Positions 29,527 to 33,628 of a DNA stretch of 33,628 nt are shown here, piece after piece. How positions within the stretch are numbered: position 1 is the stretch's first letter; every line of letters starts with the position of its first letter. This stretch comes from a virus (taxonomy: Duplodnaviria > Caudoviricetes): IMG/VR virus record IMGVR_UViG_3300017913_000012, positions 1 to 33,628 of that record; one strand, given 5' to 3'. Below the pieces are notes generated by a model. It was given only the letters and a program-made list of their open reading frames with translations. It did no database searches and was not told the DNA's origin. Position numbers and translations under genes: made by a program.

Positions 29527-29722
29527 TGTCAGTCTTTCCTATGTGATCCTCTATAAAATCGTACACTATCTGCATGTCTAACTCAGCAGCAGCACAGTAG
29601 AGTACAAGCTTCAGCCCCTCACTAGCCAACATCTCACGTACATCATCGTCTAGTTGTACTGTGAATGTAGCTGAACCATCTTCATGTTCCTCTACATTTT
29701 CTACACCAATCATCCCAGTCAT
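29513..29722 (-). CDS. Acidic hypothetical protein (69 aa, MTGMIGVE...)
   Basis: ATGA overlap with the thyX stop and AAGGAG RBS support ATG 29722 rather than 29749. Confidence 0.75.
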   Translation of the reverse strand: MTGMIGVENVEEHEDGSATFTVQLDDDVREMLASEGLKLVLYCAAAELDMQIVYDFIEDHIGKTDNVYR

Positions 29723-30390
29723 TCTGCATACTCCTTCAGTGCTTCCCAAGATATTGGGTACAGGTTTTCCATCTCCTCGTCAATAGCATCTGCTACCACA
29801 CGAGTCTCTGCCTGTGTATCATCTTTACATCGTAGGCTACACATCTTGGCAAAGGCAAAGAGTGAGCCAGACCAGTACCACTCAGTCATCATAGACTGTG
29901 GCAATACCATACGTGCTTGCTCCTCACATGTACCTAGCTCTAGCATACGTCTGTATGTTCTTGCTGCACCCTTGGTAAGCTGATCATACTTGTTTTGTAC
30001 AGCTTTCTTTGCACCACTATCAAGTGGTCCACCACTTCCTTGTTTCTTATCTCCTGATGCTTCACGCCAGTGTGGATCAAAGAACTCTGGTTCAGAATTG
30101 ACATACCTACGGCTGATCTCGTTCCAAGGCATGTACTCATGCTTGACTAGCTGTCGGGCCACAAAGATCGGTGCCTTGACATGGAAGGTAGCAAAGGCAT
30201 GGTTGAATGGTGACTTGTGCTTGTGCTTGGCTAGGTACATGATAAGTCTGCAATCCTTAGTAGACAGTACCTTAGCTTCACCGTTGTGTACCCTCGGTAA
30301 CCAGTCAGATTTCTTACCAAAGCTAACACGTGCTGCATTTACCACTGATAGGTCACTGCCCATGTGGTCAATGTAAGTTACTTCAATCAT
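29719..30390 (-). CDS. thyX: Flavin-dependent thymidylate synthase
   Basis: VNAARVSF, H.SPF.H, APIFVARQL.KH...NEISRRY, EQARMVLP and LR....Q.E motifs. Confidence 0.93.
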   Translation of the reverse strand: MIEVTYIDHMGSDLSVVNAARVSFGKKSDWLPRVHNGEAKVLSTKDCRLIMYLAKHKHKSPFNHAFATFHVKAPIFVARQLVKHEYMPWNEISRRYVNSEPEFFDPHWREASGDKKQGSGGPLDSGAKKAVQNKYDQLTKGAARTYRRMLELGTCEEQARMVLPQSMMTEWYWSGSLFAFAKMCSLRCKDDTQAETRVVADAIDEEMENLYPISWEALKEYAE

Positions 30391-31271
30391 TCTTTTTGTC
30401 TCCTCGCTAGTGCGTTAGTTGCAGTTTTAAAACTGAACTTATTGTATGGGTTCAAACTTGCTACACTCTTATGCCCTGAAACAGATTGAATTGCAAGGTG
30501 GTCAATACCACTCTCAATCATCTGGACAATAGCAGTCTTACGCAAGTCACCCACCTGTAAATCTTCGGGTAATCCAGCCTCATCTTTAACCTCACGTAGC
30601 ATGGCAGTCATCTGCTGAATAGACATAGGTCTATAGGCATTGTCTTGTGGCCTGTGATGAGGTACTACATATTCTTGGAAGTCTAGATCTTCCTTCTGCT
30701 CAGAAAGCATATCATAAAGATTGTCTGGGATTGGTAACTCTACTGTAGATCCACGCTTACTTTGCGTTATCGTAACCTTGCGTTCCTCTAGGTCTATGTT
30801 GTCCCACTCAAGGTTACGGATATCTACTGGACGTTGACCCCACTCATAGCACATCAATACTATCAGTCCGATACTACGCCATTCAAATTTAGTAAAGGCA
30901 GTGTCAAGAAACTTCATCACCTGATCGTGTGTCCATGTGACAGAACGGGGTGTAGCTTTACGCTTCTTAACTCTAGCCATTGGGTTGTGAGTTATGAACT
31001 CAAGCATACACATATGGTTCATGAGAACAGAGAACACCCTCGCACAATGGTTTGCGTTGGAGGTGGATGTCTCTGCTTCCCAAGTGTCGTACAACTCAAC
31101 ACACATAGGAACGTTAATTTTATCAAGCATAACATTACCTAGTGTCTTGCCCATTACAGACATACGACAGAAAGAATTGAGGTTGTACTCGTAGTTTAAC
31201 TGGGAGGAACGTGACAGTGAGTTAAACTGTCGGGAATGTAGGTAGTTAAACACAGCACCTTTAAATCTCAT
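30387..31271 (-). CDS. Tyrosine recombinase/integrase (294 aa)
   Basis: GQRPVDI (Arg), QSKRG (Lys), GDLRKT, SGH and PY catalytic pattern; ATG 31271 with AGGA upstream, where the track uses TTG 31286. Confidence 0.9.
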   Translation of the reverse strand: MRFKGAVFNYLHSRQFNSLSRSSQLNYEYNLNSFCRMSVMGKTLGNVMLDKINVPMCVELYDTWEAETSTSNANHCARVFSVLMNHMCMLEFITHNPMARVKKRKATPRSVTWTHDQVMKFLDTAFTKFEWRSIGLIVLMCYEWGQRPVDIRNLEWDNIDLEERKVTITQSKRGSTVELPIPDNLYDMLSEQKEDLDFQEYVVPHHRPQDNAYRPMSIQQMTAMLREVKDEAGLPEDLQVGDLRKTAIVQMIESGIDHLAIQSVSGHKSVASLNPYNKFSFKTATNALARRQKE

Positions 31272-31315
31272 ATCTTTCCTATCCAATGTGTACAGTCATC
31301 ATGCGGGTCATCCAT
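31268..31315 (-). CDS. 15-aa micro-ORF MDDPHDDCTHWIGKI, not in the ORF track
   Basis: AGGAG 6 nt before the ATG; its TGA overlaps the recombinase ATG (ATGA). Confidence 0.6.
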   Translation of the reverse strand: MDDPHDDCTHWIGKI

Positions 31316-31325
31316 ATTGGACTCC

Positions 31326-31402
31326 TGGCCCACCCCGCAGGACTCGAACCTGCAACCCCCTGATTAGAAGTCAGGTGCTCTATCCAGTTGAGCTAGGGGT
31401 GG
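31326..31402 (-). tRNA. tRNA-Arg (anticodon TCT), 77 nt with encoded CCA
   Basis: Acceptor CCACCCC/GGGGTGG + G + CCA; D arm TAGCTCAACTGGATAGAGC; anticodon arm CCTGA-CTTCTAA-TCAGG; T arm GCAGG-TTCGAGT-CCTGC. Confidence 0.97.
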
Positions 31403-31415
31403 TACATTAAGTATT

Positions 31416-31467
31416 ACTTAAAGTATCTCTACTACTTTAATTATTTTAGTAGTAAAGAACTTTAAGT
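31416..31467. repeat. AT-rich imperfect inverted repeat (21/20-bp arms, 11-nt loop)
   Basis: acttaaagtatctctactact (31416-31436) pairs with agtagtaaagaactttaagt (31448-31467) with one bulge and one mismatch. Confidence 0.85.
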
Positions 31468-31510
31468 TATACTTTAAGTATTATATACGTCAACTTAAAT
31501 CTTCTGTCAA
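31466..31510 (-). promoter_or_regulatory. Putative sigma70-type promoter(s) for the tRNA/replication operon
   Basis: Minus strand TTGACA (31510-31505) with TATATA at 17 nt or TATAAT at 19 nt; nested TTGACG-16-TATAAC. Confidence 0.6.
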
Positions 31511-31523
31511 GTGCGACATTTTG

Positions 31524-32480
31524 TCATGAGTATCTACGACTAGCATAATTATCCATGTAGTTGTAAAAATGTGACATGTCGTCTATCTGACACTCTTCCA
31601 TTAAGCTGTAAGGTGTAAAGCCATAGGAGGATAGTAACTCTGCTACAGCTTGAGGGTAGTCAATCACTAGATCCATCAGTGCATCAACGTCACTATTTTC
31701 TTTAGTGTTATCAATAACATAAGAGCCTTTGTCATAGTACAGTGACTCTACTACAGAGGGGTCACGTTTGAATACTAGCTTAGACCAATCAGCAGTCTCA
31801 AGTGCAGCGATCAGTTGATCAAGATACTCAAGGTCTTGTGTCTCATTGACACCATGTTGTCCATAGTAACCGACACTGATGTTGGTACACTCAGGGATGA
31901 GCATGGAGTATTCATTACTGTCAGTGTAGGAACCACCATCATCAGGTTTCAGTTGAGGCATCTTCAAAGCATCAGAGAATGATCGAGCAAACTCATCCGA
32001 TGCAGTACGCATACCCATCTGGTGTGTGATCACAGACTTGTCACCGTAACGGTCAAAGGATATTACAGCTTTGGTGTACATCATCCAGTCAGGCATGTCA
32101 TCTACCAGTGCAGCACTACCCTTACAACCAACCTCTTCAGCTGCATGAACAACATAGGTACCTTCAACACCTGCCTCAATCATGTGAAGCATGATGTATA
32201 TACCAGTGGTACAGTCAGCACCAAGGCAGTTGGATGTCTTGCTGTCAGCCACAGACACAACATCATTGGTAACAACAATCTTTTGCATACCCTCAGTCTT
32301 GTGTACTGTGTCATGGTGTGCAGTAAAGCACAGGTGTGGCTCATATCCCACTTGTGTGACATAATTACCATGCTCATCAGGTTCACCGAACACAGGTTCG
32401 AGAAACCTTTTACAAAATTCTTTCTGGGTAAAGCTACCCTCTGGCCGCTTGTACCGCAGCATCTCTACTAAACTATGCAT
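31524..32480 (-). CDS. M20/M28-clan zinc metallopeptidase (318 aa)
   Basis: Metal-ligand motifs AHHDTV, GADC..G, AAEEVG, FDR and C-terminal VGYYGQH...E. Confidence 0.85.
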   Translation of the reverse strand: MHSLVEMLRYKRPEGSFTQKEFCKRFLEPVFGEPDEHGNYVTQVGYEPHLCFTAHHDTVHKTEGMQKIVVTNDVVSVADSKTSNCLGADCTTGIYIMLHMIEAGVEGTYVVHAAEEVGCKGSAALVDDMPDWMMYTKAVISFDRYGDKSVITHQMGMRTASDEFARSFSDALKMPQLKPDDGGSYTDSNEYSMLIPECTNISVGYYGQHGVNETQDLEYLDQLIAALETADWSKLVFKRDPSVVESLYYDKGSYVIDNTKENSDVDALMDLVIDYPQAVAELLSSYGFTPYSLMEECQIDDMSHFYNYMDNYASRRYS

Positions 32481-33628
32481 CTAATTCTAACTCCTCTTGC
32501 ACCTGTTCCCACAGGCCATCATCATTTATTTTCCAGAATGAGTTTGGATCTTCATCTAACTCATCCTTGGATACAGTCTCACCATTATCAAGATTACACT
32601 TCTGATCATTAGGGTACAGCTCATTGTCCCAATCAGATGTAAAGTAGTCATTGATATCATCGGGAGATATGAATTGGTTTTCATACTCACAGTACACAGC
32701 ATCATCAATGTGCCAGTACTCATTGTCACTACACTCAACGAACACATCACCATCATATACGATACGTTCATACACTTGGACTGACTCGTGTTGACCACCG
32801 TAGGCTACACGGTAGCATGTAATCATCTGATCATTGTGGACAGTTTCCTGCCAGTAGTCACAGAAACTGTGCTCATCGTAGTAACATGACTCGCAGTAGT
32901 GTTGATCATTATACTCTGAATAGAAGTAGTCATCCTCAGACAAGTGCTCACCACACTCACGACAGCTAGTGTAGTGTCCTCCAAGGATACCGTTGTACTG
33001 ACTGGCGTCAATCTCACCACGGCGGTGAACTTCCAAGTAATTACCAGTATCAGTTAATGATTGTGGTGTCAAGTCAAGATATGGTGCAAGAAATCCACCA
33101 TCTTCTTCAATACGTTGTAACCTAGCACCAACCCAACAGGCACCATTGTCATACAGGGTAGCCTTGAGCTTGTGTAGGTACTCCTCGATCATGTCTATAG
33201 ACTGCTCAGATACACCGTACACTGGCCCTGCCTGTCTAGGTTGGCCTTGCTTGTAGTACACGACACACCGACTAGCCACCATGTTGTTTTGGTCAGTGGT
33301 GTAGATGATGGTGAAGTCACCACTTGCGTATGCCGTAGCAGGGTGAGCACTAAGGTGGTCGAACTCGTGGCGCATACAACTACAGGCCATTGACTTACGT
33401 CCTGGTGTAGTCTGAATATTCTCTGACGGCGACTGCTCACCTGCATAGGCGAAGGCAAAGTCATCTGCATCTTTGGATGTGTGTAAGGTAAGCTCACGTG
33501 GGGCAAACTCCTGTAAGAATGCATCGGTAATCGTGATGATAGACTTGTGGTCAAGCTCAGGGAACATCATCTTGATTGCACGTGCAGGTTTCATTGCAGT
33601 GAGACGATCCTCGTCACGGTTCTTCTGC
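32473..33628 (-). CDS. Phage protein with SCM motif and acidic Cys-rich repeats; 5'-truncated
   Basis: The frame stays open upstream of ATG 33594 to the window end (QKNRDEDRLTA-MKP); CRECG, YCESC and degenerate Cys repeats; 8-nt overlap with the peptidase gene. Confidence 0.8.
   Translation of the reverse strand, partial: QKNRDEDRLTAMKPARAIKMMFPELDHKSIITITDAFLQEFAPRELTLHTSKDADDFAFAYAGEQSPSENIQTTPGRKSMACSCMRHEFDHLSAHPATAYASGDFTIIYTTDQNNMVASRCVVYYKQGQPRQAGPVYGVSEQSIDMIEEYLHKLKATLYDNGACWVGARLQRIEEDGGFLAPYLDLTPQSLTDTGNYLEVHRRGEIDASQYNGILGGHYTSCRECGEHLSEDDYFYSEYNDQHYCESCYYDEHSFCDYWQETVHNDQMITCYRVAYGGQHESVQVYERIVYDGDVFVECSDNEYWHIDDAVYCEYENQFISPDDINDYFTSDWDNELYPNDQKCNLDNGETVSKDELDEDPNSFWKINDDGLWEQVQEELELDA

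Follow-up and report, generated by a model that had tools for sequence, protein, structure and literature searches.

The stretch of DNA analyzed here (hereafter, the window) is a whole IMG/VR virus record of 33,628 nucleotides with a completeness estimate of 60%, and its closest cultured DNA matches are the Roseobacter phages CRP-9, CRP-13 and CRP-2. Its gene content includes thyX, a primase/helicase, a family A polymerase, a Cas4-like exonuclease, a class II RNR and PhoH. The features of the locus under study are listed in Table 1. The junctions between them are as follows: the GGAG of the micro-ORF Shine-Dalgarno sequence (SD) occupies positions 31325-31322, the AGGAG ends 6 nt before the micro-ORF ATG at 31315, and the micro-ORF TGA (31270-31268) overlaps the recombinase ATG, which begins at 31271, in an ATGA. 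The encoded peptide contains 4 Asp, 2 His and 1 Cys. Every detail of this layout, from the terminal A of the tRNA CCA as the first base of AGGAG to the overlaps and the peptide composition, had been read correctly in the original prediction; the recombinase's own AGGA (31280-31277) was missed there.

Table 1. Features of the tRNA, micro-ORF and recombinase locus of the window.
Feature	Position	Strand	Basis or remark
Likely sigma-70 promoter, TTGACA, 17 nt, TATATAAT	31480..31510	minus	inferred by reading the sequence
AT-rich 26-pair inverted repeat	31409..31474	minus	computed fold
tRNA-Arg(UCU) gene, CCA encoded	31326..31402	minus	ARAGORN tRNA-Arg(TCT); Rfam tRNA, 66.9 bits
CCA of tRNA-Arg(UCU)	31328-31326	minus	sequence
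Micro-ORF Shine-Dalgarno, AGGAG	31322..31326	minus	first A is the terminal A of the tRNA
15-codon micro-gene, MDDPHDDCTHWIGKI	31268..31315	minus	belongs to a family of phage peptides whose core has 14 residues
Weak SD of the recombinase itself, AGGA	31277..31280	minus	inside the Ile-Gly codons of the micro-gene
Tyrosine recombinase/integrase, 294 aa	30387..31271	minus	phrog_1, PF00589, tblastn
thyX	29719..30390	minus	PF02511, phrog_85; ATG overlaps the recombinase stop by 4 nt

The promoter of Table 1, whose layout is repeated in loci L003-L006, was not among the output of a strict consensus scan; it would likely drive a transcript comprising the tRNA, the micro-ORF, the recombinase gene and thyX. 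The inverted repeat lies directly after the promoter and is a candidate target or binding site of the recombinase, or a candidate operator. Similar arms, with ACTTAAAGT-type units in both, are found upstream of the recombinase gene in relatives (L123-L191), whether the tRNA and micro-ORF are present or absent. Stems of at least 20 pairs occur upstream of the recombinase gene in 44 of 64 loci, and the stem is longer than in all 20 shuffles in only 16 of the 64, with no clear excess over shuffled sequences. Two genes precede the promoter (31524-33594, minus strand), one for an M28-type peptidase (phrog_4191) and the other for an acidic protein of 373 aa that contains Cys pairs and had no family match.

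The recombinase is 38-42% identical to the integrases of HMO-2011, CRP-1, CRP-2, CRP-207, CRP-345 and CRP-603, and it scores 85.4 bits against PF00589 (cut-off, 27.1 bits). The catalytic residues of a tyrosine recombinase, R152, K172, R244, H267 and Y276, are invariant in 12 relatives.

The peptide family and its start signals

The peptide of the micro-gene belongs to a family with a 14-residue core of the pattern DDP[H/C/T]DD[C/V][T/S]HW[I/L/V]Gx[I/L/M], which over the 268 distinct cores collected can be summarized as D-D-P-[H/C]-D-D-[C/V]-[T/S]-H-W-[I/L/V]-G-x-[I/L/M]. The micro-ORF is far beyond chance. A back-translated HDDCTHW pattern matched 108 viral stretches, 102 of which belong to the family and six to one unrelated repeated sequence, against about 3 chance matches expected by a rough estimate; the DDP codons, which were unconstrained in that search, vary almost only at third positions. 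When positions 7-9 were freed, at least 119 loci were obtained (about 180 stretches estimated), and 84 of the 91 distinct copies of this set were judged by eye to be family members. The exclusion of His at position 4 yielded at least 120 loci (about 290 estimated), and here 82 of the 83 distinct copies belong to the family, with 72 Cys, 9 Thr and 1 Ser at this position; the nine Thr-4 copies carry Val at position 7. A metagenome scan gave at least 118 loci, with about 820 estimated when chance matches are included.

The peptide core is under strong purifying selection in one frame. For 26 distinct cores from 49 loci fetched by their recombinase genes, pN/pS was 0.087 and dN/dS 0.045, whereas the other two frames over the same 49 loci gave 0.93 and 1.21, and the recombinase gene gave 0.078; these values are pairwise counts uncorrected for relatedness, with synonymous sites near saturation. 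The 49 loci were drawn from 53 that bear the ORF, after three shorter variants and one with another spacing had been set aside. An antisense reading frame was also considered and was excluded by codon-degeneracy reasoning.

The signals for initiation are likewise commonest in this frame. Of 300 copies, 289 have an in-frame ATG, GTG or TTG within 25 codons, as against 135 and 100 for the other frames, and 167 have an SD of -4 kcal/mol or stronger (29 and 23 for the other frames). No such start codon lies within 25 codons in the remaining 11 copies, and in L067 the open frame has none at all. The near-identical loci L025 and L049 differ in having ATA and ATG, respectively, behind the same SD. 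Of the 305 copies, 199 end precisely four residues past the Trp, 105 have another tail length and one is cut. A following ATG is overlapped by 105 of the 305 copies, in 95 cases as ATGA and in 10 as TAATG or TGATG. Since the N-terminal arms of family members are unrelated to each other and the tails of 105 of the 305 copies differ, only the core appears to matter. Conservation of the ORF, its SD and its frame, which the original prediction had set as a check, is thus borne out by the start codons, the SDs and the dN/dS value, and these features support the view that the micro-ORF acts like a real standalone gene.

Stops of upstream genes often fall in the Asp-Asp codons of the motif. A +1 frameshift from the upstream genes was considered for such copies and set aside, because most of them have their own start; the CRP-9-like loci, for instance, have a TTG or ATG start behind an SD of the AGGA or GGAG type. 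In L563 (P0040), P0001 and P0004, an in-frame fusion or read-through places the core at the C-terminus of proteins of 68-222 aa. In L020, L021, L060, L087 and CRP-2 gp18, an 80-aa phrog_3342 gene starts in the Asp codons of the motif in another frame, and both frames cover the whole core.

The micro-gene appears to be phage-only in range, with no true host copy found. A search for the His/Cys form in the genomes of 185,579 species gave a sole match, which lies out of frame inside another gene and is attributable to chance. No full-length match to a 14-position profile was found in 401 genomes sampled from the class of the Alsobacter genome G011, and the best match among them (L574), located in a GC-rich leader, was rejected as chance. 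A match in cyanophage S-ShM2 was not counted, as it lies inside an annotated gene of 253 aa, at 44%.

Occurrence of the micro-gene and its possible role

The 305 copies fall into 48 clusters of flank similarity, the largest of which contain 116, 65, 30 and 19 copies. The carriers range from cultured Roseobacter podoviruses to T4-like phages of 120-300 kb; the five cultured carriers, CRP-2, CRP-4, CRP-6, CRP-9 and CRP-603, all infect RCA Roseobacter hosts, and no host could be assigned to the large T4-like carriers, for which only distant relatives turned up. The motif is nearly always located at a gene junction. In CRP-4 it fills the gap separating the primase and DNA polymerase genes, in CRP-6 it precedes a cell wall hydrolase and in KZY1 an exonuclease; other copies, in contigs of up to 300 kb, follow portal, tail sheath stabiliser or clamp loader genes. 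A promoter-like TTGAC follows the stop in 17 copies, the L019 copy ends at a terminator-like hairpin, and the next gene covers the entire length of some copies.

All 10 of the 10 large contigs, all five cultured carriers and the window contain a single copy each, as would fit a diffusible product. The motif is absent from CRP-1, CRP-7, CRP-13, CRP-207 and HMO-2011 (a positive control was run), and the complete 56 kb relative G414, which has the recombinase, lacks the micro-ORF. As this patchy presence shows, the micro-gene is accessory and dispensable.

In several large phage contigs (L058, 1308-1490; L067, L080, L086, L089, L324 and L424), the micro-gene adjoins a gene for a protein of roughly 61 aa ending in GRDPDLH. 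Together these genes make up a small unit, which often lies on the strand opposite to the flanking genes, and the GRDPDLH protein had no Pfam or PHROGs family at E <0.01.

We assign a probability of roughly one half to the explanation that the micro-gene encodes an accessory peptide which acts in trans, docking on a conserved alphaproteobacterial host protein. The 14-residue core would work as a short linear motif, in which the acidic DDPxDD patch would bind a basic surface and the W-hydrophobic-G-x-hydrophobic anchor would sit in a pocket, and the docking would serve counter-defence or host takeover. We infer the translation of the peptide, its action in trans and its host target from the comparisons described here: action in trans from the changing neighbours and from those copies at which a transcription unit ends, and a host-protein partner from the fact that the carriers have hosts, rather than genes, in common. 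The link to the host consists in the RCA Roseobacter hosts common to the cultured carriers and in the presence of the motif in the alphaproteobacterial-type tmRNA of one contig. In the clade of the window, the gene heads the recombinase operon, and terminating ribosomes probably help to start the recombinase; this help would be a local side effect and not the reason for the conservation of the peptide. Against action in trans, it should be mentioned that the siting at gene junctions, the fixed stops after the Trp and the overlaps with a following ATG also fit a role in cis, and that the near-exclusive exchange of His and Cys at position 4 hints at a metal ligand. The weaker recombinase SD in loci that have the ORF and the copies lacking a canonical start codon also count against this explanation.

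A more specific proposal, which we put forward tentatively and consider doubtful, is that this plug-in gene, exchanged among podoviruses, further tailed phages and the jumbo T4-like phages that infect marine alphaproteobacteria, encodes a tiny linear motif for counter-defence, which would inhibit a conserved enzyme of host defence or RNA cutting. If this were true, it would be among the smallest counter-defence factors, at 14 codons, and the sites beside tRNA-Arg(UCU), tRNA arrays and tmRNA would mark tRNA-directed defence as the target. ORFs this short are skipped by gene callers, yet the core is strongly selected in unrelated phages that are common in ocean datasets, which points to a conserved host vulnerability or defence.

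The best surviving alternative, although an unlikely one, is a cis-acting leader, in which the peptide, while still being made, would delay or arrest the ribosome close to the stop codon. Re-initiation, mRNA stability or read-through of whatever lies downstream would be adjusted in this way, perhaps under the influence of a metabolite or a metal. Sequence-conserved leader peptides are often arrest peptides, and the 199 copies with a stop four residues after the Trp, the 95 ATGA overlaps, and a recombinase SD that is weak with the ORF and strong without it are all consistent with such a role. However, the downstream genes are unrelated over the 48 contexts, with no fixed downstream family. The 105 copies with other tail lengths, some of them fully overlapped by the next gene, the new promoter-like site after 17 copies and the terminator-like hairpin at L019 also argue against a leader, as do the single copy per genome and the ORF deletions in L129 and L157, which leave the recombinase gene intact.

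A free metal-binding peptide is also rather improbable. On this view, the peptide would use [H/C]-D-D-C-x-H to hold Zn, Cu, Fe or an Fe-S cluster and would buffer or deliver the metal during infection. Position 4 is His in 134 and Cys in 124 cores (258 of 268), Cys occupies position 7 in 194 and His occupies position 9 in 248, although such residue counts are biased because the search patterns fixed several positions; in some copies from larger phage contigs, the arrangement is C-x3-C-x2-C. On the other hand, 74 of the 268 cores have Val, Ala, Ser, Ile or Thr at position 7, so that no set of Cys/His ligands is invariant, and Thr-4 is combined with Val-7 in 9 of 83 copies, while the Asp, Pro, Trp, Gly and the hydrophobic end are the best-kept residues of the core. 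The metal-binding leader suggested in the original prediction is weakened by these replacements. Additionally, the carriers use either class II RNR (the window) or class I RNR, and this difference leaves no shared cofactor link. A connection with cobalamin, suggested by a loose likeness of the core to the DxHxxG loop, was rejected, as two large carriers use class I RNR.

The tRNA junction and the recombinase

Relatives of the recombinase were collected by an alignment-based scan, and the best 80 of 335 were examined. Five with too little upstream DNA and ten distant ones with an N-terminal extension were left out, and the remaining 65 close loci include many that are near-identical. Both the tRNA and the micro-ORF are present in 27 of them, the micro-ORF only in 26, neither in 11, and one carries a deletion. 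On a quick maximum-likelihood tree (63 rows), the state with neither element requires 6 changes and the state with tRNA plus ORF for 4; at least three of the four tRNA-state changes are forced, and the junction between ORF and recombinase stays the same. L129 and L157 show apparent clean deletions of the ORF, in which the recombinase gene is intact and keeps an SD; the L129 recombinase has zero branch length on the tree. The nearest relative (87%; L001, 2930-3000, the same contig as L122) has lost the 3' half of its tRNA together with the SD and codons 1-5. This deletion, seen in one contig, fuses the tRNA variable loop to micro-ORF codon 6, with the recombinase intact and its SD weak.

The original prediction held that 3' maturation of the tRNA would clip the ribosome-binding site of the micro-ORF and thereby switch the translation of the recombinase and of replication genes, a mechanism that we now regard as quite improbable. 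It is in keeping with this mechanism that none of the 65 close loci has a tRNA without the micro-ORF and that the recombinase has a weak SD. The 20 distinct tRNA-Arg junctions, moreover, are all short: the SD overlaps the CCA in one, abuts it in 11 and lies 2-6 nt off in 8, and a cut near the CCA would leave a very short leader. In other phages, the motif also follows tRNA arrays (4 loci) or a tmRNA CCA. However, a tRNA within 60 nt upstream was found for only 25 of the 305 distinct motif copies, which give 23 distinct junctions, and was not found for the other 280 (10 of all copies had less than 200 nt upstream). The SD shares a base with the CCA in one of the 23 junctions, that of the window alone, and there GGAG survives removal of the CCA, the computed duplex energy changing by about 1 kcal/mol, from -6.9 kcal/mol with the CCA to -5.9 without it. 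The 26 close loci that have the ORF and recombinase and no tRNA, the four changes of tRNA state across an unchanged junction, and the loss of half the tRNA, the SD and the ATG in the nearest relative also speak against a switch. In CRP-7, CRP-9 and CRP-13, tRNA-Arg(TCT) precedes the SDs of other genes by about 6-13 nt, and in L025, L035 and L049 the tRNA and ORF have no recombinase behind them. Finally, tRNA maturation is constitutive, so the trigger for a switch is missing.

The overlap of the SD with the CCA is real but does not go beyond ordinary packing. Of the 21 junctions that separate larger genes on the minus strand of the window, 5 have a four-base overlap, and the base shared by the micro-ORF SD and the tRNA is likely an incidental result of tight gene packing. 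It does not look like a designed switch, which corrects the original idea. In four RNA runs from one study, available as contigs only, contigs of a relative span the tRNA and the ORF, although transcription, ends and level are not readable from them; seven RNA runs contained 5-14% of the searched words.

Other copies of the motif also lie near tRNA genes. Four (L524, L471, L407 and L366) are downstream of tRNA arrays, each of which includes tRNA-Arg(UCU), and in L018, L463 and CRP-9 the copies are located about 135-230 nt upstream of tRNA-Arg(UCU). This repeated nearness may reflect only the abundance of that tRNA in these phages. In L082 (1382-1726), the peptide core is held in the enlarged intervening segment of a viral permuted tmRNA of the alphaproteobacterial type, where the frame stays open across the acceptor piece and lacks a start codon downstream of the CCA.

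Local translational coupling between the micro-ORF and the recombinase, another part of the original prediction, remains plausible, because the recombinase's own SD is weak when the ORF is present: its median is -4.2 kcal/mol in 49 ORF-bearing loci, compared with -5.5 to -10.8 in 11 loci without the ORF. The weak SD fits either coupling or simply the constraint of coding for Ile-Gly-Lys. The supposed dependence of coupling on the tRNA did not hold up, since coupling, if real, would be the same with or without a tRNA.

That the peptide is a cofactor or directionality factor of the adjacent recombinase, as had also been suggested, or of another phage protein, is highly improbable. In many podovirus loci, the motif adjoins a related integrase or lies no more than about 450 nt from one, but peptide and integrase do not co-occur consistently. 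The carriers CRP-9, CRP-6 and CRP-4 gave no integrase match, no tyrosine integrase match was found in any of five large carriers (34-86% complete), and the integrase-bearing G414, CRP-1, CRP-207 and HMO-2011 are without the motif. As for another phage protein, podoviruses and T4-like phages presumably share few protein partners. The least probable explanation, with a negligible chance of being correct, is an attachment-site copy of a host gene end that would restore the gene on integration: the micro-gene adjoins an integrase gene, and the related CRP-3 integrates at the 3' end of a host tRNA-Met (PMC6918029, in excerpt), but no in-frame host match was found in the 185,579 species and no full-length profile match in the 401 class genomes, and the ORF has its own SD and start and occurs also in phages without an integrase match.

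Comparison with known systems

A family search with long-armed members against Pfam, PHROGs and NCBIfam found none (best, phrog_12455, E 0.18), and a PDB search with both alignments gave no match. In the ESM Atlas, the best matches (0.87) were to unnamed clusters below the lead threshold, and a second search gave no match. When 1.84 billion representatives were searched with a profile, just 3 family members came back, owing to the long first row in that profile, and a search for longer proteins returned 4, all with the motif on an extended frame. The core strings were absent from the open-access full texts searched; small-gene catalogues, for instance that of Fremin and colleagues for phages, may list members in their supplementary tables. 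No such peptide family and no CCA-SD switch appeared among the papers listed by topic searches.

Among six named phage records, the only annotated CDS in the motif frame is CRP603_gp17 (UAW59184.1), a hypothetical protein of 58 aa with no assigned function or family; no annotation exists for the short forms of CRP-4, CRP-6, CRP-9 and KZY1, whereas CRP-2 is annotated in another frame. Other long-armed members are listed as hypothetical proteins by metagenome gene callers. A resemblance to the C-terminal His-Trp motif of DUF551 (PF04448) is a lead only: the DUF551-type phage proteins of L221 and L283, picked up with the relaxed pattern, carry DDPHDD upstream of their own THW, but no family member scores with the PF04448 profile and the motif spacing differs.

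As in HMO-2011-type phages, the integrase gene of the window precedes thyX and the replication genes, and its tRNA-Arg(TCT) corresponds to that of CRP-7, of CRP-9 and of CRP-13. The integrases, the tRNA-Arg genes of these three phages and the integration of CRP-3 at tRNA-Met have been described (PMC8528129, PMC6918029, PMC9038755); in the excerpts of these papers the micro-ORF is unmentioned, and the term "small ORF" is absent from PMC8528129 and PMC9038755. The DNA polymerase of the HMO-2011 type has a partial DnaJ domain (PMC6918029, in excerpt). Unlike it, the 616-aa polymerase of the window matches DNA_pol_A only, apart from a weak unrelated match, and has no DnaJ-type Pfam match.

TnaC, SecM and CruR are arrest or leader peptides tied to one downstream gene family. 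The micro-gene resembles them in encoding a conserved peptide that is often upstream of, and overlapping with, the next gene, and differs from them in its 48 flank contexts and variable tails. T4 Stp is an anti-restriction peptide of 26 residues, and lambda CIII and T7 gp4.5 are small inhibitors of host enzymes. Like these, the micro-gene is tiny and can be dispensed with by the phage, and its product would bind a host enzyme; unlike them, it encodes a 14-residue acidic core which is common to podoviruses and large T4-like phages and has no sequence match in Pfam, PHROGs, NCBIfam or PDB. The peptide family thus appears to be undescribed, and to belong with a known kind, the small accessory peptides of phages.
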